DNA from: Candidatus Woesearchaeota archaeon
GTDB lineage: Archaea > Nanobdellota > Nanobdellia > Woesearchaeales > GW2011-AR4
NCBI GenBank assembly: GCA_016185755.1
Contig: JACPMX010000016.1
Location: forward strand, 985 to 64,984
Reading direction: 5' to 3'
DNA length: 64,000 nt
Position 1 is the first letter of the stretch. Every line of letters starts with the position of its first letter. Shown here piece by piece: positions 8,611 to 30,577 of the stretch. The notes under the pieces are model-generated. The model was not told where the DNA came from and ran no database searches. It was given only the letters and a program-made list of their open reading frames with translations. A program made the translations under genes and the position numbers.

Positions 8611-8611
8611 T

Positions 8612-9490
8612 ATGGCAAAAAAAATAGACTTGCAGTCCCACACTACAGCTTCAGACGGCGAACTGGCTCCCGAAGAGCTGGTTGACCTGGCAATAGAAAA
8701 AGGGCTGAGCGCAATCGCAATAACAGACCACGATTCCGTGGCATCGCTGAAGGCTGCAATTGAGCATTCCAAAGGCAAAAATATTGAAATAGTTACAGGC
8801 GTAGAATTAAGCTGCGACGATCCCATACTAAATTACGACAAAATAGACGTGCTAGGCCTTTTTATAGACCCAAAAAACAAAAAGCTGATGGAATCAATTA
8901 AAAAAATAAACAGGAAAAGGGATGATAACAAAAAGAGGATAATAGGGAAATTAAAAAGCCTCGGCTACGAAATTGAGTATGAAGAAGTCAAAAAAACAGC
9001 CAAAGGGACTTTCGGCAGGCCCCATATTGCAAAATACCTGCTGAAAAAATACCCCTCGGAATTCAGCTCTGTTGCCGACGTTTTCGACAAGCTGATAGGC
9101 ACAGGCAAAAAAGCATTTGTGGGGACCCATGACAGGGTTTCCATCAAGGATGCCGTAAAGACAATAAAAGGCGCTGGCGGCATTTCCATACTGGCTCATC
9201 CGGGAATATACACCAAGGAAGATTCAATCAGGATTATTGATTATTTTATTGACAAAGGAGGCGAGGGAATTGAGACATATTATCCCTACCACATCATATG
9301 CCCGGAGCTTAATGTTGATAAAGAAGGCAATGAAAAAATAATAGGCTTCTACAAAAAAATCGCAAAATCAAAAAGAATACTTGAAAGCGGCGGCAACGAC
9401 CACCACGGCAATTACAGGTTTACTTTGGGAGCTGTTGAAATCCCATACGAAGTTTTGGAAAACCTTAGGAACAGGAAACCTGCCCTGTAG
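8612..9490 (+). CDS. PHP-domain metal-dependent phosphoesterase (TrpH/YciV-like)
   Basis: KIDLQSHTTASDGELAPEELV...AIAITDHDSV is the canonical PHP N-terminal His/Asp motif. Further His-rich motifs (ILAHPG, GGNDHHG) follow. Confidence 0.75.
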   Translation: MAKKIDLQSHTTASDGELAPEELVDLAIEKGLSAIAITDHDSVASLKAAIEHSKGKNIEIVTGVELSCDDPILNYDKIDVLGLFIDPKNKKLMESIKKINRKRDDNKKRIIGKLKSLGYEIEYEEVKKTAKGTFGRPHIAKYLLKKYPSEFSSVADVFDKLIGTGKKAFVGTHDRVSIKDAVKTIKGAGGISILAHPGIYTKEDSIRIIDYFIDKGGEGIETYYPYHIICPELNVDKEGNEKIIGFYKKIAKSKRILESGGNDHHGNYRFTLGAVEIPYEVLENLRNRKPAL

Positions 9491-9499: not shown

Positions 9500-10036
9500 A
9501 TGGCAAAATCAGCATGGACTATCTGGTTTGTAGGGCTGCACGGCTCTGGAAAATCAACCATATCAAAAAAAACAGCTGAGATTCTGAGGAAAAAAAACGT
9601 GCCTGTAGTAATTCTTGACGGCGATGAATTAAGGGAAGCAATATCATCCGACCTGGGCTACAGCATAGAAGACAGGGACGAGCACATGAAAAGGACAGCA
9701 GACTTGTGCCGCATAATTTCAGGAAACGGAATACTCTGCATAGCATGCGTTGCATCCCCAACTGAAAAATCCAGGGAATACGCCAAAAAAATGCTCGGAA
9801 AAATAATCATAGTCTATGCCAAATGCCCCCTTGAAGTATGCGAAAAAAGGGATGTCAAGGGGCATTACAGGAAGGCAAGGAACAAAGAAAAGGGATTTGA
9901 AGATTTTTTAGGAATATCCTTGCCTTTCGAAGAGCCAAAGAATGCAGATATAATCCTCAACACTGATAAGGAAAGCGCTGAAGATTCTGTGAGCAGGCTT
10001 CTTAAAAAATTGGCGGAAATGAAGGCAATTGAATGA
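9500..10036 (+). CDS. cysC: Adenylylsulfate (APS) kinase
   Basis: P-loop GLHGSGKST, LDGDELR (CysC LDGDNVR), and KCPLEVCEKRDVKGHYRKAR (CysC CPLEVCEARDPKGLYKKAR). 178 aa. Confidence 0.85.
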   Translation: MAKSAWTIWFVGLHGSGKSTISKKTAEILRKKNVPVVILDGDELREAISSDLGYSIEDRDEHMKRTADLCRIISGNGILCIACVASPTEKSREYAKKMLGKIIIVYAKCPLEVCEKRDVKGHYRKARNKEKGFEDFLGISLPFEEPKNADIILNTDKESAEDSVSRLLKKLAEMKAIE

Positions 10037-10075: not shown

Positions 10076-11068
10076 TTAAACTATCCTTGCTTTCCTTAAA
10101 ATATCCTTGATCTGGCTGATGTTTAGGTAACTGGCGTTTTTTGAATTGCTGTCCATATCAGCTTTCCGTTTTTTTGCCATATCAGAAACAGAAGGATGCC
10201 TTATTACATACATATTTCCCATGTCCTCTGAATAAACTGATTCCTCCTGCGTCATTAAAGACTCGTGCATCTTTTCGCCGAATCTGGCCCCGATAAACCT
10301 GAGCTTTATATCTTTAGGCTCATGGCCGTGCTTAGGGGCAAGCTCTTCTATCATGGCATGTGCAAGATCAATGACTTTCAATGCACTCATCTTGAGCACG
10401 AATATCTCCCCGCTCCTGGTGACTTCGGCGGCCTTCAAGACCAAGCTTATCGCATCAGACTTTGTCATGAAGTAACGGCTCATCTCTTTGTCAGTTATGG
10501 TCAACGGGCCCCCATTTTCAATCTGCTTCCTGAATATCGGTATGACAGAACCAACCGAATCCAGCACATTTCCGAACCTTACGCAGCAGAATTTAGTATC
10601 TGCATTGCTTATTGCAGTGTCTATTATCACCTTTTCGCTAAGCAGCTTTGTGGCCCCCATTGTATTGATTGGGTTAACCGCCTTGTCTGTGGAGATTCCT
10701 ATAAACTTTTCAACATTGTTGTCTATGGAAGCTGAAATCAAATTTTCAGTTCCAACGATATTGGTGCTTACAGCTTCAAAAGGGTTGTACTCGCATAAAG
10801 AAACATGCTTCAGGGCTGCAGCGTGGAATATGATATGAGCCCCCTTTACTGCCCTTTGGACCCTGTTCCTGTCCCTGATGTCACCTATAAGCAGCCTTAT
10901 CCTGTCAGTTGCCAGCTCCTGCCCCAGATGGAACAGGTTTGACTCATTATTGTCAAAAACCCTGATTTTCTCCGGATTATACTTCAGCAACTGCTTTACT
11001 ATCTCGCTGCCGATTGAGCCGCACCCGCCTGTCACCAGTATATCTTTTCCTTCAAAGACGCCTTTCAT
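10076..11068 (-). CDS. UDP-GlcNAc 4,6-dehydratase (CapD/PseB/LegB family polysaccharide biosynthesis protein)
   Basis: ILVTGGCGSIGSEI Rossmann motif, extended SDR. Gene order with DegT, acetyltransferase, NeuC, NeuB, NeuA. Confidence 0.85.
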   Translation of the reverse strand: MKGVFEGKDILVTGGCGSIGSEIVKQLLKYNPEKIRVFDNNESNLFHLGQELATDRIRLLIGDIRDRNRVQRAVKGAHIIFHAAALKHVSLCEYNPFEAVSTNIVGTENLISASIDNNVEKFIGISTDKAVNPINTMGATKLLSEKVIIDTAISNADTKFCCVRFGNVLDSVGSVIPIFRKQIENGGPLTITDKEMSRYFMTKSDAISLVLKAAEVTRSGEIFVLKMSALKVIDLAHAMIEELAPKHGHEPKDIKLRFIGARFGEKMHESLMTQEESVYSEDMGNMYVIRHPSVSDMAKKRKADMDSNSKNASYLNISQIKDILRKARIV

Positions 11069-12174
11069 TTTAACCTCCTTAGGATTTTTTTGAGAGAATT
11101 TACAACTGTATGCATATCTTTTTCCTTAATCTGCTCGTAAAAAGGCAAGATCATTATCGTCCTGCTCAGCTTTTCAGCCACCGGAAAATCACCTTCTTTG
11201 CAGCCAAGACTTTCCCTGTAAAACGGCTGCAGGTGAATGCAGGGATGAAAATACGCCTTGCTCTGTATCCCCATGGCGTTCAATTCGCTTATGGCCCTGT
11301 CCCTTATCTTTTCGCTTACCATTACAGGAAAAACAAACCATGAATGCTCATTGCCTTTTCTGATTTTTGGCAGCGTTACGCCATCGATTCCCTTTAATTC
11401 ATCAAGATAGGCATTTGCAAGCTCCTTTCTTTTTTTAATAAAGCCCGGCAATTTTTCAAGCTGCTCTACCCCAATGGCGGCATTTATCTCGTCCATCCTG
11501 TAATTATAGCCAATCCGCTGGTGGGTAAGCCACTGCATGTTATCCGATCTTCCCTGATTCCTGTAGCTTTTGCACAGTGCGCTTGTTTTTTCATAGTTTG
11601 TAACAATCATGCCTCCTTCAGCTGTTGTCATCTGCTTGTTTGGGTAGAATGCAAAAACTCCCGCATCCCCCATTGTTCCGGTATTTTTTCCCTTATAGGT
11701 AGCCAGTATGCTTTCGCATGCATCCTCTACGACTTTCAGCTTGTTTTCCCTTGCTGCCTTTAGTATAGGATCCATATCGCAGCTTTGGCCGAAGACATGC
11801 ACCGGCAAAATGAACCTTGTCTTTGCATTTATTTTTTCCTTTATCAAATCAGGATTAATGTTAAAAGTGTCCTCTTCCACATCGACAAAAACAGGCTTTG
11901 CATTCTCAAACAAGGCGCAGTTTGCAGAGGCAACAAAAGAAAAAGGAGTTGTTATCACCTCATCTCCGGGATTTATGCCCAAAGACTTTAATGCCAGGTG
12001 CAGCCCTGAAGTGCCTGAGTTGACAGCAATGGCATATTTTGACCCCATAAGCCTGGAGAATTTTTCCTCAAATTCTTCCAATTTAGGGCCTAAGCTCAAT
12101 ATTCCTGATTTCAGCACTTTTACTACTGAATTGATCTCTTCTTTTCCTATTGTCGGCCTTGATAATGGTATCAT
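11065..12174 (-). CDS. DegT/DnrJ/EryC1-type PLP-dependent sugar aminotransferase (PseC/LegC-like)
   Basis: Full-length match to the family: VNSGTSGLHLAL, ...PVHVFGQ..D.D, and the FYPNKQMTTAEGGMIVT lysine region. Confidence 0.85.
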   Translation of the reverse strand: MIPLSRPTIGKEEINSVVKVLKSGILSLGPKLEEFEEKFSRLMGSKYAIAVNSGTSGLHLALKSLGINPGDEVITTPFSFVASANCALFENAKPVFVDVEEDTFNINPDLIKEKINAKTRFILPVHVFGQSCDMDPILKAARENKLKVVEDACESILATYKGKNTGTMGDAGVFAFYPNKQMTTAEGGMIVTNYEKTSALCKSYRNQGRSDNMQWLTHQRIGYNYRMDEINAAIGVEQLEKLPGFIKKRKELANAYLDELKGIDGVTLPKIRKGNEHSWFVFPVMVSEKIRDRAISELNAMGIQSKAYFHPCIHLQPFYRESLGCKEGDFPVAEKLSRTIMILPFYEQIKEKDMHTVVNSLKKILRRLK

Positions 12175-12184
12175 TTTAGTGTTT

Positions 12185-12589
12185 TCAATTTTTTATTTTC
12201 TTCACAACTTTAGCCGGGATGCCATAAGCAACAACATTATCCTGGATGTCCCTGTTGACAAACGAAAAAGCCCCTATAACTGAATTTTTCCCTATCGAAA
12301 CCCCGGGCATTATGACAGAATGGCTGCCTATTTTACAGTTTTCCTTTAATGTCACCATTCCTTTCTTGCCGTCTATTGTGCTTATGCTGTATATCGAGCA
12401 GTGGCTTCCTACCTGCACACCATCCTGTATTTCCACGCCGTGCTTCGCGTTTATGTATGTAAATGCGCCTATATCAGTTTTCCTGCCCAGTTTCAGGCCG
12501 CCTTTATTCCGGACCAGCCAGCTGTATTTTGTCATTTTTCCTTCCCTGATTTCCGGGAATTTCCAGCCCTTAAACCTTTCTTCTTCCAT
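12185..12589 (-). CDS. Hexapeptide-repeat (left-handed beta-helix) N-acetyltransferase (PseH/LegH-like)
   Basis: Repeating [LIV]G.... hexads (IGSHSVIMPGVSIGKNSVIGAFSFV). Start set at the internal Met to avoid overlap with the upstream gene, so the start is uncertain. Confidence 0.65.
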   Translation of the reverse strand: MEEERFKGWKFPEIREGKMTKYSWLVRNKGGLKLGRKTDIGAFTYINAKHGVEIQDGVQVGSHCSIYSISTIDGKKGMVTLKENCKIGSHSVIMPGVSIGKNSVIGAFSFVNRDIQDNVVAYGIPAKVVKKIKN

Positions 12590-12593
12590 TTTT

Positions 12594-13733
12594 CTAGTAT
12601 GATATCCTCTTCTGCAGGAGCTTCTCATCAATTTTTATGCTTTTTAGGCATTCAAGCACCTTCTGGAAAGTATCTCCGCTGCCGAAAGGATTCTTCAGGC
12701 TTTTTATTCTCTTCTGAAAACCTTTTGATAAAGCGAGCTTTATGGATTTTTTAATATCTTCCTTCTGATATCCGCAGTCAATGACATTTCCTGCCCTTTC
12801 CCTTCCTTTTTGCCTTGAGCCTATATTGACGGCAGGAAGCCTGAAATATGGGGCCTCTATTATTGCGCTGCTGGAGTTCCCAACAATTACATCAGCAAAG
12901 CCCATAATGCCTATGAATTCTACGTAATCCAGATTTTTCCTTATCCTGAAGCCCGGATTTGAGGCAAATTCGCCAATGGCCTTTATAATTCCACTGTTTC
13001 CGGGGTCTGCATTAGGATAAACAACAAGGCACTGGGCGTCAATTTCAGCTACCGCCTTTAGCGTGTTGAGTATTTGGCTGTATGAGCTGTTTTCCTCGAG
13101 CGTTACAGGATGCTGCAAAACCAGCACAAGAGGCTTTTCATTGCTTAATTCAAATTTTTTGTATAATTCTCTTTTTGAAATCTTTTTCATCTCCCTTATG
13201 TTGCTTACGGAAGGGGAACCGACAACACGTATCCTAAAAGAATCTTCCCCCATTTTTTTTATCCTTTCTGCAGATTTTTCCGTGGCGCAGAAATGCAGAT
13301 GGCTCAGCTTTGTTATTGCATGCCTTGCCGCCTCGTCAACGGTCGAGGTCACTTCGCCGCCATGGAAATGGGCAACAGGTATGGAAAGGTAAGAGCCTGC
13401 AATAGCCCCTCCTAAGGCCTCTATCCTGTCGCCTATGACAAAAATAAAGTCCGGCTTTATCTCGCTAAGTTTTTTTGTCAATTTTTCTATAAAATTACCC
13501 AAAAAAAACAGCATAGATGCCTTGTTGTCTTTCTCGAAAACAGAATTTATCTCTACTGTGCCCAATCCGCTTTTTTTGACCTCATCTATGCTATGGCCGA
13601 ATTTTTCCATCATATGCATGCCTGTTGCAATTACAGTTATCTTAAAGCCTTTAGCCTTATCCAATTTTTTCAGCAGTCCCGACATTATCCCGAAATCCGC
13701 CCTTGTTCCCGATATATAAACAATTTTTTTCAT
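12594..13733 (-). CDS. neuC: UDP-N-acetylglucosamine 2-epimerase, hydrolysing type (NeuC/LegG-like)
   Basis: MKKIVYISGTRADFGIM...HGGE..S..DE..RHAITKLSHLHF is characteristic of the NeuC/WecB epimerase fold. Sits immediately upstream of NeuB. Confidence 0.75.
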   Translation of the reverse strand: MKKIVYISGTRADFGIMSGLLKKLDKAKGFKITVIATGMHMMEKFGHSIDEVKKSGLGTVEINSVFEKDNKASMLFFLGNFIEKLTKKLSEIKPDFIFVIGDRIEALGGAIAGSYLSIPVAHFHGGEVTSTVDEAARHAITKLSHLHFCATEKSAERIKKMGEDSFRIRVVGSPSVSNIREMKKISKRELYKKFELSNEKPLVLVLQHPVTLEENSSYSQILNTLKAVAEIDAQCLVVYPNADPGNSGIIKAIGEFASNPGFRIRKNLDYVEFIGIMGFADVIVGNSSSAIIEAPYFRLPAVNIGSRQKGRERAGNVIDCGYQKEDIKKSIKLALSKGFQKRIKSLKNPFGSGDTFQKVLECLKSIKIDEKLLQKRISY

Positions 13734-14800
13734 TCTATCTTTTCCAAACTTAATAATTCATCTTTCATAATTTGGGCATTCGCTTTTTTCCCTATTATCG
13801 AGTAGATATCTTTAGGCTTCAATCCAATTCCAGGCCTTTTTATTGCAAGATTTCCAAAGCTTAGTTTCTCGCCTTTTGCTATGTTCCTTGCAGCTACTAT
13901 GCTTTTTCTTGCTACTTTGGCATTTTCTATTTCGCTTTTTGTTGGCTTTTTTTCAGCACTCCCCAAAACTCCCCCATCAAGCTTGATTTTCTCATAATCC
14001 TTGTTTTTTATTGCTGTTATCATTTCTTTTAATTCATCAGGCTCCAAAGAAGCTTTGTGGTCAGGCCCTTCCATGCCCCTGTCAAGGGTAAAATGCTTCT
14101 CTATCAGGACCGCGCCTAGCTTAACAGCCATCTGCGGAACATCAATCCCGAGCGTGTGGTCAGAATAGCCCACCAGGCTATCTAATTCCTTCTGCATGGT
14201 CTGCATGGCCCTTAAGTTCACTTCATTTTTTGGGCATGGGTAACTGGTTGTGCAATGCAGCATGATAACTTCCCTGTTGCCTGCTTCATATATTTCACTC
14301 AATGCCTCTTTTACCTCTTCCAAGGTAGACATCCCTGTCCCCAAAATCATGGGCTTGAGCTTTTTTGCAGCCTTTTTCAAAAAAGGGATATTGGTAAGGT
14401 CTCCGGAGCCTATTTTGAATGCAGGCATCATCTTGTCCAAAAAATCTATTGCATCATTTGTATGGGGGGTCGATAAAAAGATAATATCTTTCTCATCACA
14501 ATATTTTTTTAATGCTTTGAAATTGTTGTAATCCAATTCTAATCTCTTCAGCATCTGCAACTGAGTTTCACCTCCTCCAATATTCTCTTCCTGGTATTTC
14601 GCCATTGGAGTTTTTTCAGCAATCAAATCCTCTGATTTAAAAGTCTGGAACTTTACAGCATCAGCTCCCGCATCTTTTGCTGCATCCACAAGCTTTTTTG
14701 CCAATTCCAAAGAGCCGTTGTGGTTCACTCCCGCTTCCGCTATTATGAAGCAAGGCTCATTTTCCCCGATTCCTCTGCCCCCTATGTTTATCCGCATCAT
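13730..14800 (-). CDS. neuB: N-acylneuraminate (nonulosonic acid) synthase, NeuB/LegI/PseI family, with C-terminal SAF domain
   Basis: CFIIAEAGVNHNGSLELAKKLVDAAKDAGADAVKFQTF is the NeuB signature. The antifreeze-like C-terminus is present. Confidence 0.85.
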   Translation of the reverse strand: MMRINIGGRGIGENEPCFIIAEAGVNHNGSLELAKKLVDAAKDAGADAVKFQTFKSEDLIAEKTPMAKYQEENIGGGETQLQMLKRLELDYNNFKALKKYCDEKDIIFLSTPHTNDAIDFLDKMMPAFKIGSGDLTNIPFLKKAAKKLKPMILGTGMSTLEEVKEALSEIYEAGNREVIMLHCTTSYPCPKNEVNLRAMQTMQKELDSLVGYSDHTLGIDVPQMAVKLGAVLIEKHFTLDRGMEGPDHKASLEPDELKEMITAIKNKDYEKIKLDGGVLGSAEKKPTKSEIENAKVARKSIVAARNIAKGEKLSFGNLAIKRPGIGLKPKDIYSIIGKKANAQIMKDELLSLEKIE

Positions 14801-15510
14801 TTGTGCCGCTGAATTATATTCCTGTTTATTTCCATCAGCTTGGGATTCTCAAGAAGAAGTTTAATGATGCTTTTCAGCGGAAAGATATTTTTATCGCCTA
14901 AGCTGTCAAAAATCCTCCTTACAAGCTCCAAATCCTCGCTGAAATCCACGGTCAGCCTTATTTCCGGATGCCTTAACTCTTCTTCAACCTCCAGGTCTAT
15001 CTTTTTCAGGCTGGACTCCCTTTCAAATAGGTTCCCCCATATTTCCGTGTCTTTCTCTTTTTTGGTTTCTATAATTTTCTTAAGAGCATCAATCTTGATT
15101 CCATAGGAAAAAGCGCCCAGCGGAAGATTTTTGCAGGTTATAAAATCAGCATCGGATTCCCTGAAACTGGTGATTATCCTGTCAATATAAGCAGGATCAA
15201 CCAGGGGGTTGTCTGCAGTAACGCTGACTATATGGCTTGCCTTGTATTTTTTTGCTGCATTGAACAGCCTGTCGAGCACGTCATCCTCGCTGCCCCTGAA
15301 CCATTTTATGCCCTCTTTCTCGGCAACATCTATCAATACATCATCCTGGGGATTTGTTGATGTGCAGAGGATTATCCCATCGGCATTTTTTGACAGCTTC
15401 AGCCTGTCTATCTGGTGCTCTATCATAGGCCTTCCTTTTATGTACCTCAGCACTTTTAACGGGAGCCTTTCCGATTTCATCCTTACTGTTATGGTTATTG
15501 CCGCTTTCAT
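14797..15510 (-). CDS. neuA: CMP-nonulosonic acid synthetase (acylneuraminate cytidylyltransferase, NeuA/LegF/PseF)
   Basis: ITVRMKSERLPLKVL...PMIEHQIDRL matches the CMP-sugar cytidylyltransferase N-terminus (GT-A-like nucleotidyltransferase). Confidence 0.8.
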   Translation of the reverse strand: MKAAITITVRMKSERLPLKVLRYIKGRPMIEHQIDRLKLSKNADGIILCTSTNPQDDVLIDVAEKEGIKWFRGSEDDVLDRLFNAAKKYKASHIVSVTADNPLVDPAYIDRIITSFRESDADFITCKNLPLGAFSYGIKIDALKKIIETKKEKDTEIWGNLFERESSLKKIDLEVEEELRHPEIRLTVDFSEDLELVRRIFDSLGDKNIFPLKSIIKLLLENPKLMEINRNIIQRHK

Positions 15511-16547
15511 TTTTCCACATTCCTCCAGCTTATAAGCGAATATTTCTTAATAGGCTCTTTTGCCTTTTTGCCGATTAAGCTAAAGAATTCCCTCTGCTCT
15601 ATGGTATTTTCCTTTTTTGTTCTCCTGAAAGCCAGGTCTTTTTTTCCTATGGAGCTTCCTTTTTTTATGTCACCTGCAGCGACTATTGTAAACTTCATCG
15701 GACCTTTCCTCGCGTATATGTTCTCGTAATCGCTGATTTCAAATGAGCCGTCGCCTTTGGCCTTGTTTAGAATACCCATCTTGCCCCTTATTTCCCTCAG
15801 GCTTTCTGCAGACACCGCAGCGTCGTAATCAGTTCTTTTTTTCCCTGCTTCCAGGGCAACGTGCTTTTCAATTATATTCGGACCTGCCATGAATCCGGCC
15901 AGTGTCATCAGTTCATTGTTTTTGTCGTCCCAGGCAGTATGGTCTGCGTATCCCACAGGAAGACCGAATTTTTCCTTGATTTTTTGCATCCTTCTGAAAT
16001 TTATATATTCATATCTCGTGGGGTAGTTCTGGAAACCGTGCATGAGAAGAATGTCTTTCCTGTCCAGGAATTTAACAGCGAATTCTATGTCTTTGATACC
16101 TGAGCCGCCAATGCCAAGAATTATCGGAACCTTTATGCCTTTCACCCTTTCAAGCATTTCTATGTTGTTCAAGGCCACAGCATGAATTTCAACAGCATCG
16201 ACCAAATCAACATTCTCCTTTACAAAATCAATAGAGTACAGGTCATCAGCCAAGACTATATTGTCAAAACCGGAGCTTTTTGCCTTTTCCAATATCATGA
16301 TCCACTGGCTTTTTGAAAACATGGATTTTTTGATTATGCTGTAAGCGGGATGGTCTTTTGTGAAATAAGAGTCTATGTCGATCATTATGTGGAATTTTAC
16401 CCCATCGCAGCTTTTTTTTGATGCAAGACTGTGGATCAGCCTGTTCATGTAGGAAAAGTTCCCCTCGTGTATATATGCGGTTTCCCCAATTATGTAAGGA
16501 CAGTTCTCATCTTCCATTGCTTCCTTGAACCTGCTTTTTTTTGCCAT
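15507..16547 (-). CDS. Second, divergent NeuB-family (sialic-acid-synthase-like) paralog with SAF domain
   Basis: PYIIGETAYIHEG... parallels NeuB IIAEAGVNHNG. HGFQNYPT and a C-terminal SAF-like segment are present. It is more divergent than 13730..14800. Confidence 0.55.
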   Translation of the reverse strand: MAKKSRFKEAMEDENCPYIIGETAYIHEGNFSYMNRLIHSLASKKSCDGVKFHIMIDIDSYFTKDHPAYSIIKKSMFSKSQWIMILEKAKSSGFDNIVLADDLYSIDFVKENVDLVDAVEIHAVALNNIEMLERVKGIKVPIILGIGGSGIKDIEFAVKFLDRKDILLMHGFQNYPTRYEYINFRRMQKIKEKFGLPVGYADHTAWDDKNNELMTLAGFMAGPNIIEKHVALEAGKKRTDYDAAVSAESLREIRGKMGILNKAKGDGSFEISDYENIYARKGPMKFTIVAAGDIKKGSSIGKKDLAFRRTKKENTIEQREFFSLIGKKAKEPIKKYSLISWRNVEK

Positions 16548-17027
16548 TTATTTATGCCCCATGACCTTGAGCATGTCATAATCCTCAAACTTGTAAACGC
16601 ATGTTGTCAGCGACTCAGACCAGTCGTTTATTATTTTGCTGAATTTGTTCCGGATCGCCCGCGTTATATTCCCAAGGTCCATGCCGTCCCTGGCAATCAC
16701 TACAATGGAAAAGTCCCATTCACCGGAAACAGACATTACTTCAGCTACATTTGGGTGCCCCTTAAGATAGTCTATGAACTCCCTTATGTCGCTATCAGAG
16801 TAATTGTGCGCCTTAATCTTAATGTCAACTATGTTGTTAAACCCAAAATTCCTCGGCCTCAGCTGTATCTTCGGGAAAAAAATATTGTTTTCCTTCATCT
16901 TGATTATCCTCTTTTTAGTCGAATCCACGGACAACTTGACTTTTTTTGCAATGCCTGTCAGGGATTTCCTGCAGTCTGCCTGCAGCATGTTAAGAATAAT
17001 GCAGTCCTTTTCATCAAGCTTTATCAT
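16548..17027 (-). CDS. Lrp/AsnC-family transcriptional regulator
   Basis: LDEKDCIILNMLQADCRKSLTGIAKKVKLSVDSTKKRIIKMKENNI is HTH_AsnC, followed by a C-terminal RAM domain. 159 aa. Confidence 0.8.
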   Translation of the reverse strand: MIKLDEKDCIILNMLQADCRKSLTGIAKKVKLSVDSTKKRIIKMKENNIFFPKIQLRPRNFGFNNIVDIKIKAHNYSDSDIREFIDYLKGHPNVAEVMSVSGEWDFSIVVIARDGMDLGNITRAIRNKFSKIINDWSESLTTCVYKFEDYDMLKVMGHK

Positions 17028-17237
17028 TCTTCTTAAAAATACGATTTTATTTATAAATATTTCTATTTTTTAAGATATATATTTAAATATAGCTTAAAAT
17101 TTAAGCTAATACATGGCAATCTCCTGCGGAAATTAAGACATTATGTGAATTATGAATAACGCGCCCTTCGCAGCCCAGGAGCCATTTTAAAGCGCATAAG
17201 ATTTTTAAACTCACATCCAATTCTTGGCTTCATAAAA
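17028..17237. promoter_or_regulatory. Divergent AT-rich promoter region between the Lrp/AsnC gene and the wbuZ-like operon. It contains TTTATTTATAAATAT, TATA-like.
   Basis: 210-bp intergenic region with several TATA-like AT tracts, flanked by divergently oriented gene strings. Confidence 0.3.
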
Positions 17238-18008
17238 ATGGAGAAAATAAGGATAATAGCCAGGCTGGATGTCAAGGGCCCCAATGTCATCAAAGGGGTG
17301 AATCTCGAAGCCTTGAGGGTGGTTGGAAAGCCGGAAAAGATGGCTGAAGATTATTACAGGCAGGGGGCAGACGAGCTGATATACATAGACATTGTTGCAA
17401 GCCTTTATGGGAGGCAAAATCTCCTTAACATAGTGAACCTGACATCTGACAAGATATTCATACCATTCACTGTTGGCGGCGGGGTAAGGACTCTTGATGA
17501 CATAAGCCTGTTCTTAAAAGCAGGAGCAGACAAGGTGGCAATAAATACTGCAATAACCAAAAACCCGGATTTAATAACGAAAGCTTCAAGGATGTTCGGG
17601 TCGCAATGCATCGTTGCTTCTATAGAGGCAAAAAAGGCACCAGAAAATAAATGGGAGGCATACACTGAAAATGGAAGGGAAAAAACAGGCCTTGATGTGG
17701 TAAAATGGGCAAAGAAAGTGGAAAAACTCGGGGCAGGAGAGATACTCCTGACGTCCATAGACAAAGAAGGCACCAAAAAAGGATTTGATATCGAGCTCAT
17801 AAAGCAGGTTTCTGAAGCTGTTTCTGTCCCGTTGATCGTATGCGGCGGCGCAGGCAATGCCGGCCACATCGTTGAATGCATTGAAAGCGGAAACATCGAT
17901 GCAGTGGCAGTTTCCTCAATTCTTCATTACGGGACATCGACTATCGGCGAGATTAAGAATCACCTTGCCAAGAGTGGAATTAGCGTGAGAAAAAATGCAA
18001 AATTATGA
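17238..18008 (+). CDS. HisF-like cyclase subunit (imidazole glycerol phosphate synthase family) of the glycan-cluster WbuZ type
   Basis: RIIARLDVKG...VVGKPEKMAEDYYRQGADELIYIDI...GGGVRTLDD is the HisF (beta/alpha)8 signature. It is located in a sugar cluster next to the HisH-like gene and the PP-loop amidotransferase, not in a his operon. Confidence 0.8.
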   Translation: MEKIRIIARLDVKGPNVIKGVNLEALRVVGKPEKMAEDYYRQGADELIYIDIVASLYGRQNLLNIVNLTSDKIFIPFTVGGGVRTLDDISLFLKAGADKVAINTAITKNPDLITKASRMFGSQCIVASIEAKKAPENKWEAYTENGREKTGLDVVKWAKKVEKLGAGEILLTSIDKEGTKKGFDIELIKQVSEAVSVPLIVCGGAGNAGHIVECIESGNIDAVAVSSILHYGTSTIGEIKNHLAKSGISVRKNAKL

Positions 18009-18657
18009 AATTCCGGATGTAAGCATAATTGATTACGGAATAAACAATCTCAAGAGTGTAAACATTGCATTCCAAAGCATAGGAAGAACCGCGAAAATAA
18101 TTGACGCTCCCGAGGACGTACAATCGGCAAAATGCCTTGTATTGCCGGGGATAGGCGCATTTCACAGCGCCATGGAAAACCTCAGGAAAAAATCCCTGAC
18201 AGAGCCAATCAGGCAAAAAGTCAAAGACGGAACCCCAATTTTAGGGATATGCCTGGGGATGCAGCTGCTGTTCTCTGAAAGCGAGGAGTTCGGGCTGCAC
18301 AAGGGGCTCGGCCTGGTTCCGGGAAGAGTCATACCATTCAAATCGCCAAAGGAAATTAATATAAAGGGCTATAAAGTACCGCATATAGGCTGGAGCGAGC
18401 TGATATTCCAAAAAAACAGTGTCAAAAATACGCTGCTTGAGAACCTGCCGGAACAATGCGAGGTTTATTTTGTGCATTCATACTTCCCCAAGGCTGATGA
18501 TGCAGGCACTGTATTGGCGACTGCCAAATACGGCGGCCAGGAATTTTGCGCAATAGTCAAAAAAGGCAATATCACGGGAACCCAGTTTCACCCTGAGAAA
18601 AGCGGGGAAATAGGGCTGAGCATGCTAAGGACATTTTGCAATCAAAATTGCAGATGA
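17995..18657 (+). CDS. HisH-like class-I glutamine amidotransferase subunit (WbuY type)
   Basis: IIDYGINNLKSV...VLPGIGAF...GICLGMQLL (Cys nucleophile)...HSY...FHPEKS. Overlaps the upstream gene by 14 nt. Confidence 0.8.
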   Translation: MQNYEIPDVSIIDYGINNLKSVNIAFQSIGRTAKIIDAPEDVQSAKCLVLPGIGAFHSAMENLRKKSLTEPIRQKVKDGTPILGICLGMQLLFSESEEFGLHKGLGLVPGRVIPFKSPKEINIKGYKVPHIGWSELIFQKNSVKNTLLENLPEQCEVYFVHSYFPKADDAGTVLATAKYGGQEFCAIVKKGNITGTQFHPEKSGEIGLSMLRTFCNQNCR

Positions 18658-19892
18658 TTATAAAAGGCGCTGAAATGGTTTCTAAAAAAATACTGGACAG
18701 GCAACTGCCGGATCTGCCCCAAGAGATAAAATTCTGCAGAAAATGCGTGGTTTCCAACCAGCGCCCAAGGATAATTCTTGACGAGGAAGGCGTTTGCAGC
18801 GCGTGCAGGTTTGCATACGAGAAGGAGCATGCCATAGACTGGAAAGAAAGAGAAGACCTGCTTAGGAAACTATGCGACAAGTACAGGAGAAATGACGGAA
18901 GATTTGACATTGTCGTGCCCTCAAGCGGAGGCAAAGACTCGTCAGCAGTCGCGCACAAGCTAAAGCACAAGTATGGGATGCACCCTTTGACAATTACATG
19001 GGCTCCTTTGGACTACACCCCTATAGGCTGGCAGAATTTCAGGAACTTTACAAAGTCAGGATTTAACAATCTCTTATTCACGCAAAATGGCAAGCTGCTT
19101 GCAAAGCTGGCCAGGCTGGCTTTCGAGGCGGTAGGGGACGTTTTCCTTCCGTTCATATACGGCCAGACGTCTTTTGCCTTCCACGTGGCTTTGATGATGG
19201 ACATCAAGCTTGTATTTTTCGGCGAGAACCCGGAAGCGGAATACGGAGGCTCCTTGAAGTACAAGGACAAGCCGGGCATACCGATCAAAGACTGGGCAGA
19301 TACATATTATAAGGGAGTCACTGTGGACGACCTCGTAAAATACGGGCTTGAAGAAACGGATTATTTTACAAAAGACGATTATGACGAATGCGACCTTACA
19401 TTTTACAGGCCCCCTCCCTTGGAAGAATTGGAAAAAAAGGACATACAGTTCCACTGGTTTGGCTTTTATGAAAAATGGGTGCCGCAGGAAAATTATTATC
19501 ATGCCGCTGAAAATACCGGGTTCCAGCCCAATCCGGAAGGAAGGTCGGAAGGCACATATTCAAAGTATGCAAGCCTTGACGACAAATGGGATCCCTTCCA
19601 TTTTTACTTCTCATTCATAAAATTTGGAATCGGAAGGGCGACATCGGACGCATCCCACGAGATAAGGGACGGCCATATAACAAGGGAAGAAGGGACTGCA
19701 TTAGTAAAGAAATTTGACTCGGAGTTCCCTAAAAAGCATTTTAAGGAGTTCCTGGCTTTTATTGGCATGGATGAGGGGCAGTTTTGGAAAACAGTTGACA
19801 AGTTCAGGACAAGCCATATATGGAAAAAAGAAAACGGGGAATGGAAGCTAAGAAAAGCTGTTTATGACGAAGCAATCAGCATCTCCCGATGA
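18636..19892 (+). CDS. N-acetyl sugar amidotransferase (PP-loop ATP pyrophosphatase, WbuX/PseA-like; acetamidino-forming)
   Basis: N-terminal CxxC...CxxC zinc ribbon (CRKCVVSN...CSAC) then the PP-loop VVPSSGGKDSSAV. Characteristic partner of HisH/HisF-like pairs in LPS/glycan loci. The start may be Met 18675. Confidence 0.8.
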   Translation: MQSKLQMIIKGAEMVSKKILDRQLPDLPQEIKFCRKCVVSNQRPRIILDEEGVCSACRFAYEKEHAIDWKEREDLLRKLCDKYRRNDGRFDIVVPSSGGKDSSAVAHKLKHKYGMHPLTITWAPLDYTPIGWQNFRNFTKSGFNNLLFTQNGKLLAKLARLAFEAVGDVFLPFIYGQTSFAFHVALMMDIKLVFFGENPEAEYGGSLKYKDKPGIPIKDWADTYYKGVTVDDLVKYGLEETDYFTKDDYDECDLTFYRPPPLEELEKKDIQFHWFGFYEKWVPQENYYHAAENTGFQPNPEGRSEGTYSKYASLDDKWDPFHFYFSFIKFGIGRATSDASHEIRDGHITREEGTALVKKFDSEFPKKHFKEFLAFIGMDEGQFWKTVDKFRTSHIWKKENGEWKLRKAVYDEAISISR

Positions 19893-19934: not shown

Positions 19935-21911
19935 ATGAACCACTCAACCTATATCTTCATCAGGGATAGTTTTGAGGCATCTCTTTTCAAAAAAACAATA
20001 GCAAAAGGAATGCTGGAGAAGCACGATATAACTGCTGTTTTGTGGAGCGGAGTTGATGCTGATTTTTTTGAAAGCCGGGGCTATAATCATATAAAGCTGG
20101 ACAGCTCCGGAGAAAGGGGAAGCCTAATAAAAATCAGGAAAAATGCGGCAGAGCTTGTCAAGGCACTTCCCCACAAAAAAATTTTTGATGACAGGTCCCT
20201 TGTAGAGCTGCTTGACTACAGGGGATTCTCCCTATGGTGGTTTGTAAGGCAGGATTTCTATACAAATTGCGTGTCTGCCGTCAATGAGATATCAATGATA
20301 AGGAACACCATAAAAGAGAGAAAAGTCAAGAAAATACTGGTTTTGAGCAAAAGCGGCGGATTTCCAGAGGCAATAAAGGAAGCAGCAAAAAACCTCAATG
20401 TAAAGATTACAATACTTGTTCCGCCTGCCTTTGCGCTGCCTTTCAACCCTTCATTTCAAAATGCAGGAAACACTTTATCTGCCTTTTTCCCAAGGTCCAT
20501 AAGGGTGATCCAGGGATTTTTTAGGTCATGGCACGCCCGAAATAAAAAAGGAAAGCAAAATATCCTGCTCTATACGAGGTCAGACTACTGGTCTTATGTC
20601 AAAGAGAACGTAAGAAACGATGCCCATTCCTATACGCTATTAAGGGAGCTGTCAAATTCTCCAAAATATAACCCGGTGCTTTTGGACGTGGCGCTCACCA
20701 AATCAGCAGCGTGGAGCAGCATCAAAGAAAATAAAAAATCATACCTTCCCTTCGAATATTTCCTCTTTAAGAGCTTTTTTGACTTGAGCCTGAAGAAAAA
20801 TATCGACATCCAAAAGAAGCGCCTCGGAAGCCTGTGGGAAAAGCTTGACAAAAACGACAAATTTAATCAGATGCTTGTACTTGACGGAATCTCCCTATAC
20901 GGCGTGCTGAGGCAGCACATAAAATCATACTTCTTTGCCACTTTCGGCTCATTTACAAATGCTATAAGGAACATAGAAACAGCCAGAAAGCTGATGGACT
21001 GGTGCAATATAGATGAGGTGATCTGCCTGGACGAAAACGGCTCTTCGCGCTTCTTGGTTTTTGCTGCGAGAATGAGCGGCATACCTTCCGTAGGAATACA
21101 GCACGGAGCATTCTCGACAGAAGAGAGCATAGTCTATAACTACAGCAAGAGCGACTTATACGGATATGGAAGAAACCTCAACTGCCAGCTTCCAGACATG
21201 ACTGCGGTATTTGGAAACTATTTTAAGAATCTCCTAGTTAAAGAAGCAAGTTATCGGCCTGGCTTGATAGCTGTCACAGGCAGGCCCCAAACAGACATAA
21301 TATACGAGAACAAAGGAAAATACTCTAAGAAGGAATTATGCAGAAAACTTGGAATAAGCGCTGAAAAGAGATTGGTGCTATTCGCATCCCAGCCCCTCGG
21401 GGCGGAAGCCGAAGAAACTTTTATCTCATTAGCCAGCTCGCTGAAGCACTTTAAAAGCATACACCTTGTAGTAAAGCTGCATCCCGGAGACTCCCAAAGT
21501 TTCTTTCAGGACTCGCTGGAGAAAATGAAATACAAGGCAACAATAGTCAAAGATGAGGACATCTTCAGCCTGATAGCATGCTCAGATTTGGTGATATCCA
21601 TACAGTCAACCGTGATTCTTGAGGCGCTGCTGCTCGAAAAGCCGGTGATTCAGCTGAACACGATCGAAAAATATGAAAACCTTTTCGGCGAGCTTGCCGA
21701 AAAGCTCATCAAGCATGTAACGAAAGAGAGCGAGATTAGCAGAGTGATCAAAAGCATGCTGTCTTCCAGACAAGAAAGCAGGAATATGAAAATGAGGAAG
21801 AAATTCATATATGAGTACTACTACAAAATCGACGGGAACTCGTCCAAAAGGGCAATAAGCGAGGCTGAAAAACTTCTCAAAGTAAAAAGCAGCGCTATCC
21901 GGGCATTTTAA
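19935..21911 (+). CDS. TagF/TagB-like GT-B glycosyl/glycerophosphotransferase (PF04464-like C-terminal domain) with an extra N-terminal domain
   Basis: C-terminal HLVVKLHPGDS...IACSDLVISIQSTVILEALLLEKPVIQL matches the K.HP...D.LITDYSS...E....KPVI pattern of CDP-glycerol glycerophosphotransferases / KpsS-like enzymes. Confidence 0.5.
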   Translation: MNHSTYIFIRDSFEASLFKKTIAKGMLEKHDITAVLWSGVDADFFESRGYNHIKLDSSGERGSLIKIRKNAAELVKALPHKKIFDDRSLVELLDYRGFSLWWFVRQDFYTNCVSAVNEISMIRNTIKERKVKKILVLSKSGGFPEAIKEAAKNLNVKITILVPPAFALPFNPSFQNAGNTLSAFFPRSIRVIQGFFRSWHARNKKGKQNILLYTRSDYWSYVKENVRNDAHSYTLLRELSNSPKYNPVLLDVALTKSAAWSSIKENKKSYLPFEYFLFKSFFDLSLKKNIDIQKKRLGSLWEKLDKNDKFNQMLVLDGISLYGVLRQHIKSYFFATFGSFTNAIRNIETARKLMDWCNIDEVICLDENGSSRFLVFAARMSGIPSVGIQHGAFSTEESIVYNYSKSDLYGYGRNLNCQLPDMTAVFGNYFKNLLVKEASYRPGLIAVTGRPQTDIIYENKGKYSKKELCRKLGISAEKRLVLFASQPLGAEAEETFISLASSLKHFKSIHLVVKLHPGDSQSFFQDSLEKMKYKATIVKDEDIFSLIACSDLVISIQSTVILEALLLEKPVIQLNTIEKYENLFGELAEKLIKHVTKESEISRVIKSMLSSRQESRNMKMRKKFIYEYYYKIDGNSSKRAISEAEKLLKVKSSAIRAF

Positions 21912-24925: not shown

Positions 24926-24927
24926 CT

Positions 24928-25926: not shown

Positions 25927-25985
25927 GCAATAACAGCAAAATTTATTATTACGGGCAAAAACCGGATGATTATTCAGATTGCAGG

Positions 25986-26732: not shown

Positions 26733-26766
26733 AAATTGCCTAAATTTCAGCCCTAATAAAAATAAA

Positions 26767-27873: not shown

Positions 27874-27925
27874 CTCATTCCTCTTTTTCCATAATTTTTA
27901 TATACCTCCCAGCTTTTCTTTCCTG

Positions 27926-30527: not shown

Positions 30528-30577
30528 AGGAAAAAGCTATGAGAAACTATTTAAATAGCTTTAGTTTCTTGGAGCGC

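Follow-up and report, generated by a model that had tools for sequence, protein, structure and literature searches.

What sugar does a cluster of overlapping nonulosonate genes in Candidatus Woesearchaeota (DPANN) make, and what does the amidotransferase encoded beside it modify? The cluster is a complete gene set for a nine-carbon, sialic-acid-like sugar of bacterial style. Clusters of this kind are already well known; their sole unstudied piece is NeuB-like 2, a conserved, altered copy of the synthase. We consider it probable that the locus is a self-contained module for making and installing a legionaminic-type 5,7-diamino-3,5,7,9-tetradeoxy-nonulosonate that is acetamidino-modified.

Organization of the locus

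A string of minus-strand genes runs from position 17027 down to 10076 and encodes, in this order, an Lrp/AsnC protein, NeuB-like 2, a CMP-transferase, the synthase NeuB1, a 2-epimerase, a hexapeptide acetyltransferase, a DegT aminotransferase, and a 4,6-dehydratase. The plus-strand genes diverging from there encode HisF-like, HisH-like, and WbuX proteins, followed by a 658-aa GT-B protein, GT658 (Table 1). All eleven genes named in the first-pass annotation are present at their coordinates with strong family matches; enzyme family memberships, gene order, and conserved gene neighbourhoods are direct observations. The ATGA overlaps that it described throughout the string occur at four junctions (dehydratase/aminotransferase, 2-epimerase/NeuB1, NeuB1/CMP-transferase, and CMP-transferase/NeuB-like 2) but not at the others: the acetyltransferase gene is separated by 10 nt from the aminotransferase gene and by 4 nt from the 2-epimerase gene, and the Lrp stop codon directly abuts the ATG of NeuB-like 2. 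Similarly, Lrp had been placed between two units; the triad does diverge there, but Lrp is gene 1 of the minus-strand string and not a separate unit. The functional unit probably extends as far as 21911, the end of the GT658 gene, which begins 43 nt past WbuX. Two starts differ from those of the open reading frames: the acetyltransferase (ORF 12185-12631, 148 aa) most likely begins at ATG 12589 and comprises approx. 134 aa, and WbuX (ORF 18636-19892) most likely begins at ATG 18675 and comprises 405 aa.

Table 1. Features of the locus, with the family assignments on which they rest
Feature	Coordinates	Strand	Family match or remark
UDP-GlcNAc 4,6-dehydratase (step 1)	10076..11068	-	Polysacc_synt_2, PF02719, E 1e-106
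DegT-family C4 aminotransferase (step 2)	11065..12174	-	PF01041, E 5e-123
Minimal left-handed beta-helix N-acetyltransferase (step 3)	12185..12589	-	Hexapep, E 7e-15
Hydrolysing NDP-sugar 2-epimerase, LegG/NeuC type (step 4)	12594..13733	-	NeuC_NnaA TIGR03568
Nonulosonate synthase NeuB1, NeuB/LegI type (step 5)	13730..14800	-	TIGR03569
CMP-nonulosonate synthetase (step 6)	14797..15510	-	PF02348 CTP_transf_3, E 1e-24
NeuB-like 2, divergent NeuB-fold paralog	15507..16547	-	TIGR03569, 128 bits, below cut-off 400
Lrp/AsnC-family transcription regulator	16548..17027	-	PF13404 + PF01037
Divergent intergenic region, AT-rich, 210 bp	17028..17237		TTTATAAATA and TTTAAATATA boxes read
HisF-like subunit, WbuZ/AglZ type	17238..18008	+	TIGR00735, TIGR03572
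HisH-like glutaminase subunit, WbuY/AglY type	17995..18657	+	TIGR01855, 212 bits
WbuX-type PP-loop N-acetyl sugar amidotransferase	18675..19892	+	TIGR03573, 331 bits, cut-off 203
GT658, 658-aa GT-B protein, candidate CMP-nonulosonate transferase	19935..21911	+	BFO_1060-family, TIGR04396, partial matches

A probable legionaminic-type pathway

In the proposed pathway, the dehydratase would convert UDP-GlcNAc into a 4-keto-6-deoxy sugar, and C4 amination by the DegT enzyme followed by N-acetylation by the small hexapeptide transferase would yield UDP-diNAc-bacillosamine. LegG-like hydrolysis and 2-epimerisation would then give 2,4-diacetamido-2,4,6-trideoxymannose, which NeuB1 would condense with PEP, and the cytidylyltransferase would turn the product into a CMP-sugar. 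The first-pass annotation had called this route legionaminic rather than pseudaminic, and the 2-epimerase, NeuB1, and the dehydratase fingerprint all argue for a legionaminic rather than a pseudaminic or Neu5Ac route.

The 2-epimerase, annotated as of the LegG/NeuC rather than the PseG type, indeed scores 411 bits on TIGR03568 (cut-off 236). Its best match of known structure is Acinetobacter baumannii LegG (5xvs/5zlr, titled GDP/UDP-N,N'-diacetylbacillosamine 2-epimerase (hydrolyzing); 206.7 bits), compared with 56.3 bits for the Neisseria meningitidis sialic-acid epimerase (6vlb). NeuB1 passes TIGR03569 (444 bits, cut-off 400) and fails the PseI model (290 bits, cut-off 340); its best solved relative is Bacillus subtilis SpsE (1vli, 208.7 bits), followed by NmNeuB (189) and CjPseI (174.7). 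SpsE is part of a UDP-linked Leg pathway that has been proven genetically (PMC7439481). The two enzymes could have grouped with NeuAc enzymes; instead, SpsE and LegG are their nearest solved relatives. It is very unlikely, then, that the 2-epimerase, NeuB1, and the CMP-transferase make Neu5Ac while the other three enzymes run a separate route to di-N-acetylbacillosamine, a glycan sugar in its own right. Such a division would agree with the NCBIfam labels NeuC_NnaA and NeuB_NnaB and with the name "N-acetylneuraminate synthase" that relatives bear in PGAP-style annotation, but the six genes form a single translationally coupled string, and the set is found together in dozens of loci, across phyla.

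In particular, the KIGSGD motif of NeuB1 carries Gly at a discriminating position, along with the change E134D. Gly marks Neu/Leg synthases, and Phe occupies the same position in Pse synthases (PMC7371886); E134D is typical of archaea (PMC7371886, PMC8208679). Moreover, neither PseG nor the GNAT-type PseH is present, and a hydrolysing 2-epimerase is foreign to Pse synthesis, a logic also applied to Tannerella forsythia (PMC5378307). A pseudaminic acid pathway is thus barely credible, even though PseB and PseC are the top NCBIfam models for the first two enzymes, since both matches, like that to PseI, fall below their cut-offs.

These first two enzymes speak less clearly for a legionaminic product. 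The dehydratase carries the fingerprint TDK...Mx3K (STDKAVNPINTMGATK), which defines the C5-retaining PglF/WbpM class, as opposed to Yx3K in PseB/FlaA1/Pen (PMC8987622, Table 1); as Mx3K also occurs in CapE/FnlA, C5 retention by this enzyme is not proven. It scores 306 bits on the PseB model (cut-off 408) and only 67 bits on LegB (GDP type), and its PDB relatives lie close together (Pen 259, FnlA-like 234, CapE 224, FlaA1 211, and PglF 201 bits). The top scorers (the PseB model, Pen, FnlA-like, and CapE) are C5-inverting or 5,6-ene relatives, which speaks against the legionaminic reading. The enzyme belongs to a short, soluble archaeal lineage, with 42-49% identity to archaeal and some Firmicute counterparts only. 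The aminotransferase, equidistant from PseC (321 bits) and the LegC family (294 bits) with both scores below cut-off, likewise speaks against that reading; it has no close relative among solved structures (PglE 159, PseC 145 bits). The acetyltransferase aligns just to the C-terminal part of the NeuD/PglD model TIGR03570, and its orthologs (55-72% identity) come straight after the 2-epimerase in archaeal loci.

The product might be another 5,7-diamino nonulosonate stereoisomer, e.g., a 4-epi- or 8-epi-legionaminic or acinetaminic-type sugar, arising by C5 inversion at the dehydratase, whose best scores are on PseB/FnlA models and Pen, FnlA-like, and CapE structures, or by sugar editing by NeuB-like 2, a conserved extra enzyme linked to the cytidylyltransferase, around CMP-activation. 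As a precedent, EpaA, a fusion of CTP_transf_3 and a reductase, acts with EpaB to turn Pse into 8ePse (PMC12053666). We regard another stereoisomer as unlikely, because the fingerprint fits the retaining class, the epimerase is nearest to LegG, whose substrate is a D-gluco sugar, and a tblastn search beside the operon found no oxidoreductase pair of the PtmF/PtmA, Ela, or Aci type. For the preferred legionaminic-type product, we infer D-glycero-D-galacto stereochemistry. The LegB score and the lack of a PtmE-like CBS-nucleotidyltransferase among the ORFs annotated in the 64-kb window (the whole stretch of DNA analysed) favour a UDP rather than a GDP carrier.

NeuB-like 2

The first-pass annotation listed a second NeuB, and a NeuB-family paralog does lie at that place; with its PEP pocket remodelled, however, it does not qualify as another ordinary synthase. 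NeuB-like 2 is only 25% identical to NeuB1. It shares with canonical NeuB/LegI/PseI the TIM-barrel plus SAF domain architecture, and in an alignment of its family against NmNeuB the metal ligands H215 and H236 are kept, as are E25, K53, Y186, D214, E234, D247, and the SAF-domain Arg314. In contrast to the canonical enzymes, it is altered around PEP (K129E, G131H, and S132A) and also at E134A, S154G, and S213A; at the PEP-surrounding positions, E120 and H122 are invariant and A123 is nearly so. By these comparisons, the predicted PEP-pocket residues are lost and those of the metal and sugar site are retained. NeuB-like 2 is genetically coupled to the CMP-transferase: of 81 loci spanning both domains, 66 have the two genes directly side by side. 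A canonical synthase is always present as well and is never replaced by NeuB-like 2.

The amidotransferase triad

The annotated triad of the WbuXYZ/AglXYZ type is fully recognizable: WbuX has the SGGKDS PP-loop and a Zn ribbon (CxxC...CxxC), and the HisH-like subunit has the glutaminase Cys (GICLGMQ) and His/Glu (FHPE). The HisF-like subunit marginally passes the genuine hisF model TIGR00735 (299 bits, cut-off 294.6) and narrowly misses the WbuZ model TIGR03572 (284 bits, cut-off 299.7), which speaks against an amidino function. The divergent operon would encode a glutamine-dependent amidotransferase in which NH3 released by HisH is channelled by the HisF-like subunit and WbuX, using ATP via its PP-loop, converts one acetamido into an acetamidino group on the nonulosonate or a precursor.

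WbuX has more than 7,800 homologs, of which the closest (63-69% identity) lie within NulO clusters, and orthologs of the HisF-like protein and the triad (59-70% identity) are found inside NulO clusters L084-L088. As the closest triad relatives belong to nonulosonate clusters in all five contexts examined, amidination of the nonulosonate is likely. N5 is the presumed site of the amidino group.

The 64-kb window also holds further acetamido-sugar routes (a dTDP-amino-sugar set, WecB, and a gene resembling UDP-ManNAc dehydrogenase), as well as a PIG-L deacetylase paired with a formyltransferase, so there are other possible targets for amidination and other possible N-acyl groups. The triad could be a mere neighbour of the operon and act on a different acetamido sugar in that glycan, on the model of L-FucNAm (E. 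coli O145) or ManNAc3NAmA (Methanococcus). WbuXYZ and AglXYZ were reportedly defined on non-nonulosonate sugars (by Feng in 2005 and Jones in 2012), their defining examples acting on FucNAc or ManNAc3NAcA, and none of the 81 NeuB-like 2 loci carries the triad, not even L005 and L006, which are the most closely related. Nevertheless, the closest triad relatives sit between CTP_transf_3, NeuB, and NeuC genes in each of the five contexts examined, WbuX-like genes occur within archaeal NulO operons (L014, L021, L025, L033, and L042), and the triad is co-operonic with a NulO-cluster-associated GT, so that a different target seems rather improbable.

Candidate transferase and regulator

GT658 would probably move the CMP-sugar onto the surface glycan. 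Over its last 150 aa it matches the BFO_1060-family model (78.8 bits, cut-off 200) and TIGR04396 (64 bits), both below cut-off. An "HP" motif, KLHPGD, lies in its C-terminal half, and its AlphaFold model has a GT-B fold (pLDDT 85.8). Homologs are found in NulO clusters, one of which keeps the HisFH-WbuX-GT order. BFO_1060/TFUB4_00887 have been shown genetically to be transferases of Leg/Pse derivatives (PMC5420450). However, by fold GT658 resembles a generic GT-B protein or 2-epimerase, which speaks against a transferase, and a TagB/HP-motif protein of B. subtilis proved to be something other than the Leg transferase (PMC7439481).

The intergenic region is presumed to comprise the promoters and an Lrp binding region. 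The Lrp/AsnC protein, heading the biosynthetic operon, presumably controls both divergent promoters; its orthologs (61-71% identity) occupy the equivalent position in L005, L006, and L088.

Comparison with known systems

The locus has six chemical steps in common with the UDP-linked CMP-Leg pathway (B. subtilis SpsM/C/D/G/E/F; Legionella/Acinetobacter Lga type), and the same families: Polysacc_synt_2, DegT, LbH acetyltransferase, hydrolysing 2-epimerase, NeuB-family synthase, and CTP_transf_3. It differs in its dehydratase lineage, in the minimal beta-helix acetyltransferase, which lacks the PglD N-domain, and in the extra NeuB paralog and the Lrp/AsnC regulator heading the operon. The Leg pathway of Halorubrum sp. 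PV6, the only biochemically supported archaeal case, likewise has archaeal LegB/C/G/I/F homologs within a larger glycosylation island (PMC6137143). In that member of the Halobacteria the genes are scattered and there is a formyltransferase instead of a triad, whereas here, in a DPANN archaeon, they overlap tightly and the triad adjoins the operon; the N5 substituent is modified in both, as formyl there and, as predicted, amidino here.

Like WbuXYZ of E. coli O145 and AglXYZ of Methanococcus maripaludis, the locus encodes a WbuX-type PP-loop amidotransferase together with a HisH-like glutaminase and a HisF-like protein. Campylobacter PseA/PtmG have nonulosonate substrates and are not known to work with HisH/HisF partners. 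Unlike all of these, the clade described here joins the full triad with nonulosonate clusters. GT658 resembles T. forsythia BFO_1060/TFUB4_00887 in its C-terminal GT-B half with the HP motif and in its position beside NulO genes, but its N-terminal half is unrelated.

Organization of the nonulosonate locus

All of the genes named in the first-pass annotation were recovered by ORF listing and by scans against Pfam and NCBIfam models. The biosynthetic genes form a minus-strand string headed by an Lrp/AsnC regulator, and a second group of genes, encoding HisF-like, HisH-like and WbuX proteins (the triad), diverges from it across an AT-rich spacer of 210 bp. The string had been described as carrying ATGA-type overlaps throughout; inspection of the seven junctions on the minus strand confirmed this for four of them and not for the others. 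The stop codon of the Lrp gene abuts the ATG of the divergent NeuB paralog (NeuB-like 2, or NeuB2) with no ATGA overlap, and the acetyltransferase gene, which most likely starts at ATG 12589 and encodes 134 amino acids, has small gaps on both sides. The CTP_transf_3 gene is translationally coupled to that of the canonical synthase (NeuB1), and the three genes of the triad overlap or abut. Scanning the window for Rfam families and tRNA genes gave no matches.

Genes of the nonulosonate string and of the divergent triad, with coordinates in the window
Feature	Position	Strand	Remarks
Lrp/AsnC regulator	16548-17027	-	first of the string in transcription order
Divergent NeuB-family protein (NeuB-like 2)	15507-16547	-	second in transcription order
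CTP_transf_3 cytidylyltransferase	14797-15510	-	E 1e-24
Canonical NeuB (NeuB1)	13730-14800	-	TIGR03569, 444 bits (cut-off 400)
NeuC-type hydrolysing 2-epimerase	12594-13733	-	TIGR03568, 411 bits (cut-off 236)
Hexapeptide acetyltransferase	12185-12589	-	between 2-epimerase and DegT in transcription order
DegT aminotransferase	11065-12174	-	E 5e-123
Polysacc_synt_2 dehydratase	10076-11068	-	last of the string
HisF-like protein	17238-18008	+	first of the divergent plus-strand genes
HisH-like protein	17995-18657	+	HisH model, 212 bits
WbuX	start most likely ATG 18675	+	405 aa; TIGR03573, 331 bits (cut-off 203)

Evidence for a probable UDP-linked legionaminic route

Five independent lines favour a pathway of the legionaminic (Leg) type, and the earlier choice of this route over the pseudaminic (Pse) one is borne out by the 2-epimerase, NeuB1, the acetyltransferase and the absence of PseG. 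A Leg pathway requires a hydrolysing NDP-sugar 2-epimerase of the LegG/NeuC type and not a PseG hydrolase, and the operon encodes such an enzyme. Its best relative in the PDB is A. baumannii LegG, described as 'GDP/UDP-N,N'-diacetylbacillosamine 2-epimerase (hydrolyzing)' (5xvs/5zlr, 206.7 bits), compared with 183.8 bits for the epimerase domain of human GNE and 56.3 bits for the sialic-acid epimerase of N. meningitidis (6vlb). NeuB1 passes the TIGR03569 model and fails that for PseI (290 bits, cut-off 340), which marks it as a synthase of the Neu/Leg type. In particular, its KIGSGD motif has Gly at the position occupied by Phe in Pse synthases, a difference that discriminates the two groups (PMC7371886), and it also carries the E134D change that is common among archaeal synthases (PMC8208679). 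Among PDB entries, NeuB1 ranks closest to B. subtilis SpsE (1vli, 208.7 bits), followed by N. meningitidis NeuB (NmNeuB, 189 bits) and CjPseI (174.7 bits); SpsE is part of a UDP-linked Leg pathway that has been demonstrated genetically (PMC7439481). A tblastn search of plasmids with NeuB1 returned only the generic labels 'neuB' (40-48% identity) and 'pseI' (36%). As the comparison included no named or solved Campylobacter LegI, the assignment of NeuB1 to Leg rather than Neu is based on its context, SpsE and LegG.

The acetyltransferase is a beta-helix (PglD/LegH-like) enzyme and not a GNAT, and neither PseG nor a GNAT-type PseH is encoded in or adjoining the operon. It is unusually small and lacks the N-terminal domain of the PglD type. 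Its orthologs (55-72% identity) lie directly after the 2-epimerase in archaeal-type clusters (L010, L015, L019-L021, L025, L037, L048, L057 and L085), and in locus L087 one is fused to DegT. The operon thus contains both the C4 aminotransferase and the N-acetyltransferase needed for a 2,4-diacetamido sugar, each matched at the family level only. A pseudaminic acid pathway was rejected, given that the PseB, PseC and PseI models all score below their cut-offs, that the dehydratase has the Mx3K signature and that PseG and a GNAT are absent.

With its motif STDKAVNPINTMGATK, the dehydratase matches TDKxnMx3K, the fingerprint of the PglF/WbpM class that retains C5, and not Yx3K, which is typical of PseB/FlaA1 or Pen (PMC8987622, Table 1); Mx3K is also found in CapE and FnlA-type inverting enzymes. 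By overall similarity, the dehydratase is nearly equidistant from all solved classes (Pen, FnlA-like, CapE, FlaA1 and PglF; PDB scores of 259 to 201 bits), scores too close to indicate its stereochemistry, so that the Mx3K fingerprint alone is informative. The aminotransferase is equidistant from PseC and LegC. Since Mx3K is shared with inverting enzymes and neither similarity comparison discriminates, the D-glycero-D-galacto configuration of the product is a prediction.

The first-pass annotation had also proposed a check of whether a GDP- or a UDP-sugar nucleotidyltransferase acts upstream of the pathway. The dehydratase scores only 67 bits on the model for LegB, the GDP-type dehydratase (TIGR04180, cut-off 475), and a PtmE-like guanylyltransferase (NTP_transferase plus CBS) is absent among the annotated ORFs of the 64-kb window, in which the sole NTP_transferase is RmlA-like and lies within a dTDP-sugar set. 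A UDP route is therefore likelier, and the GDP-linked pathway of the Campylobacter type was rejected on the same two grounds.

The predicted acetamidino module

WbuX has the features of a WbuXYZ/AglXYZ PP-loop amidotransferase: it exceeds the TIGR03573 cut-off and contains the PP-loop motif SGGKDS and an N-terminal CxxC...CxxC Zn ribbon. Its partners are encoded beside it; the HisH-like protein has the glutaminase Cys and His/Glu, and the HisF-like protein scores 299 bits on the hisF model and 284 bits on that for WbuZ (cut-off 299.7). The WbuX family is highly conserved and comprises more than 7,800 homologs, the best of which (63-69% identity) come from bacteria and archaea alike. Five contexts of the triad were examined (L084-L088), four of them around close WbuX relatives on long contigs and one from the search with the putative glycosyltransferase GT658. 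In all five, the triad sits among CTP_transf_3, NeuB and NeuC-type genes, with identities to the window proteins of 59-70% (HisF), 44-62% (HisH) and 50-68% (WbuX), and some contain domain fusions (HisF-HisH, NeuB-formyltransferase, NeuC-PIG-L and DegT-PglD-NeuB). Moreover, distant WbuX-like genes (approx. 30% identity) occur inside archaeal nonulosonate operons (L014, L021, L025, L033 and L042). Both observations support the link between triad and nonulosonate that had been drawn from the sequence, and the window triad appears to belong to a HisF/HisH/WbuX clade dedicated to nonulosonate clusters.

From this context, the module is predicted to convert an N-acetyl to an N-acetimidoyl group on the nonulosonate, at N5. 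None of the 81 NeuB2 loci described below contains the triad, not even L005 and L006, which are most closely related to the operon, and the window encodes other acetamido-sugar routes together with a PIG-L/formyltransferase pair, so that both the target sugar and the N5 position are deduced rather than observed. The pair, in which the formyltransferase gene (42333-43037) overlaps that of the PIG-L deacetylase (43034-43645), lies 23 kb from the operon and could swap N-acetyl for N-formyl on the nonulosonate, in competition with the acetamidino prediction. The same formyltransferase and PIG-L domains are fused to NeuB and NeuC, respectively, in L087, and the 5-N-formyl-Leg of Halorubrum provides a parallel.

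A candidate transferase and the Lrp regulator

GT658, a GT-B protein of 658 amino acids (19935-21911, plus strand), is encoded by a gene that begins 43 nt after WbuX and is likely the transferase of the CMP-nonulosonate. Its C-terminal part alone matches the BFO_1060-family model (78.8 bits, cut-off 200) and also, below cut-off, TIGR04396; BFO_1060 and TFUB4_00887 are genetically supported transferases of Leg/Pse derivatives in T. forsythia (PMC5420450). GT658 has an 'HP' motif (KLHPGD) and no clean D/E-D/E-G motif; studies of B. subtilis SpsB indicate that TagB/HP motifs alone are no proof of Leg transfer (PMC7439481). The family is small (21 matches), and the three homolog contexts examined are all nonulosonate clusters. 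The order HisFH-WbuX-GT recurs in one of the three; in L088, the divergent arrangement recurs and the biosynthetic string again begins with an Lrp/AsnC gene, and in L089, the third context, NeuB and CTP_transf_3 genes are close by. An AlphaFold model of GT658 (pLDDT 85.8) has the GT-B fold. Its Foldseek matches were UDP-GlcNAc 2-epimerases and the generic GT-B fold only, with no sialyltransferases among them; a sequence search of the PDB returned nothing useful. Because of these 2-epimerase neighbours and the SpsB caveat, the transferase role is graded as likely and not as proven. The Lrp regulator has orthologs (61-71% identity) at the equivalent position in L005, L006 and L088.

A divergent NeuB paralog encoded beside the CMP-transferase

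NeuB-like 2 is the one non-textbook component of the locus. It shares 25% identity with NeuB1, scores 128 bits on the NeuB model and matches no specific NCBIfam model, and our targeted literature searches, on second NeuB proteins and on NeuB-like proteins associated with legionaminic acid, found no description of it. A search of 1.8 billion cluster representatives yielded 961 relatives at E<1e-30. Among them are natural proteins in which NeuB and CTP_transf_3 are fused, in either order, and one triple fusion (NeuB-NeuB-CMP). Most of the fusions to the CMP-transferase are not of the NeuB2 type; they form a sister subgroup retaining K129, S132 and D134.

In an alignment of 50 family members with NmNeuB (whose numbering is used here unless stated), residues E25, K53, Y186, D214, H215, E234, H236, D247 and R314 of the SAF domain are kept, and K129E, G131H, S132A, S154G and S213A are replaced, as is E134 by Ala or another residue. 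The substituted residues are themselves conserved: E120 and H122 of NeuB-like 2 (positions 129 and 131) are invariant and A123 is at least 90% conserved across the 50 members. In NmNeuB, the residues at positions 129, 131 and 132 lie around PEP, and all three isozyme types (Neu, Leg and Pse) conserve them (PMC7371886). NeuB-like 2 thus departs from the canonical PEP-dependent synthases at these positions, and its use of PEP is unlikely; the pattern of conservation suggests that the protein retains a conserved active site of another kind.

Scanning one genome per species gave 80 NeuB2 loci from Bacteroidota, Planctomycetota, Omnitrophota, Bacillota, Chloroflexota, Thermoplasmatota, Methanomicrobia, Asgard, Bathyarchaeia and DPANN. 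With the H. orenii locus (L001) added, the synteny of 81 loci was determined by tblastn. The CMP-transferase directly adjoins NeuB2 in 66 of the 81 loci, across more than 10 phyla: immediately downstream on the same strand in 64 (median gap 60 nt) and immediately upstream in two. It lies within 2 kb in a further five, and five loci end too soon to judge. When only the 37 fully flanked loci are considered, the CMP-transferase is present in all, the 2-epimerase in 33 and a canonical NeuB in 32.

The metal/sugar site that is kept while the PEP pocket is replaced, the adjacency to the CMP-transferase, the canonical synthase alongside and the fusions in the sister subgroup lead us to propose, tentatively and as something short of probable, that NeuB-like 2 represents an uncharacterised, widespread, synthase-derived family that does not use PEP and performs an undescribed step coupled to CMP activation in Leg-type pathways of Bacteria and Archaea. 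Candidate roles are a metal-dependent change to the nonulosonate, by retro-aldol/aldol (pyruvate-type) chemistry or by epimerisation, that would determine the isomer to be cytidylylated, editing of the N-acyl groups, or that of an obligatory partner subunit of the cytidylyltransferase. A precedent for sugar editing coupled to CMP activation is the production of 8-epi-Pse by EpaA, a cytidylyltransferase-reductase fusion, and the SDR EpaB (PMC12053666). Identity with PtmF (Cj1330) of Campylobacter was rejected, since PtmF is an oxidoreductase (PMC4481668, Table 5), as was replacement of PtmF/PtmA, since approx. 12 loci carry NeuB2, CMP-transferase, PtmF-like and SDR genes in a row.

In one relative (P0298), a NeuB2-type domain is fused to DUF386 (YhcH/YjgK/YiaL family), and in Kriegella a DUF386 gene (L003, 11949-12404) directly follows the NeuB2-CMP-transferase pair. 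DUF386 proteins are linked to sialic-acid metabolism in E. coli, and their association hints that the pair handles free nonulosonate.

Other glycan-related genes in the window

Genes for a PHP-domain protein (8600-9490), which resembles 3',5'-bisphosphate nucleotidase, and an APS (adenylyl-sulfate) kinase (9500-10036) abut the operon, convergent with the dehydratase gene. Sulfotransferase genes occur in eight related nonulosonate loci, including L001, L084 and L088, and in some, for example L018, L047 and L077, they come directly after the CMP-transferase; L088 encodes a fusion of a PHP domain with the 2-epimerase. These associations suggest sulfation of the glycan or nonulosonate, or a role of the PHP protein in the pathway. 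A tblastn search of the window with two sulfotransferases of related clusters found no homolog. Beyond the pair lie three consecutive ORFs (5828-6898, 6900-7988 and 7981-8610) that have no significant Pfam or NCBIfam match and are candidates for unrecognised glycan-modifying enzymes, and then a gene (4414-5826) for a 470-aa protein whose matches are confined to the PK_C domain and the C-terminal portion of the pyruvate kinase barrel. This pyruvate-kinase-like gene lies in a glycan island beside a PEP-consuming pathway.

On the other side of the operon, genes for a cupin-type dTDP-sugar isomerase/epimerase, a dTDP-glucose 4,6-dehydratase-like protein, the RmlA-like nucleotidyltransferase, a second DegT and a methyltransferase (24467-28609) predict that the same glycan contains an amino-deoxyhexose made by a dTDP-linked route. 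Those at 30539-36885, encoding a non-hydrolysing UDP-GlcNAc 2-epimerase (WecB type), an Antibiotic_NAT-family acetyltransferase and a UDP-sugar dehydrogenase, are consistent with synthesis of ManNAc(A); in T. forsythia, ManNAcA serves as the nonulosonate acceptor. Two radical-SAM proteins, of which one contains a B12-binding domain, are encoded among glycosyltransferases (37000-40451) and may catalyse C-methylation or some other unusual tailoring of sugars; the nonulosonate cluster carrying the protein P0402 likewise has a B12-radical-SAM gene. From 50000 to 64000, G+C drops from approx. 43% to 29-36% and very large proteins are encoded, among them a subtilase-family protein of 1441 aa and another of 770 aa that has weak PKD-like matches; they are likely secreted or surface proteins, or the segment is compositionally foreign.

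Relation to known nonulosonate pathways

Nonulosonic acids are known chiefly from bacteria, as sugars of virulence and of flagellins, and to our knowledge the Halorubrum pathway alone has biochemical support in Archaea. Our literature searches found no paper pairing DPANN with nonulosonic acids, and among the results listed none linked Woesearchaeota with sialic-acid terms. DPANN are small-celled, often host-dependent organisms, and a compact, complete Leg-type cluster with an amidino module suggests that they too bear a sialic-acid-like surface coat, which would be relevant to cell-cell attachment and virus recognition. Two comparative leads emerge: the clade of amidotransferases apparently dedicated to nonulosonates, and the conserved NeuB-derived protein found with the CMP-activating enzyme in numerous Leg-type clusters of bacteria and archaea. 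The latter is the feature that deserves experimental follow-up; the cluster is otherwise ordinary for its kind. By the features examined, the locus belongs to the UDP-linked legionaminic-type pathways and works like those of B. subtilis (Sps), Legionella/Acinetobacter and Halorubrum PV6, to which it adds an amidotransferase of the WbuXYZ/AglXYZ type beside the Leg-type operon.
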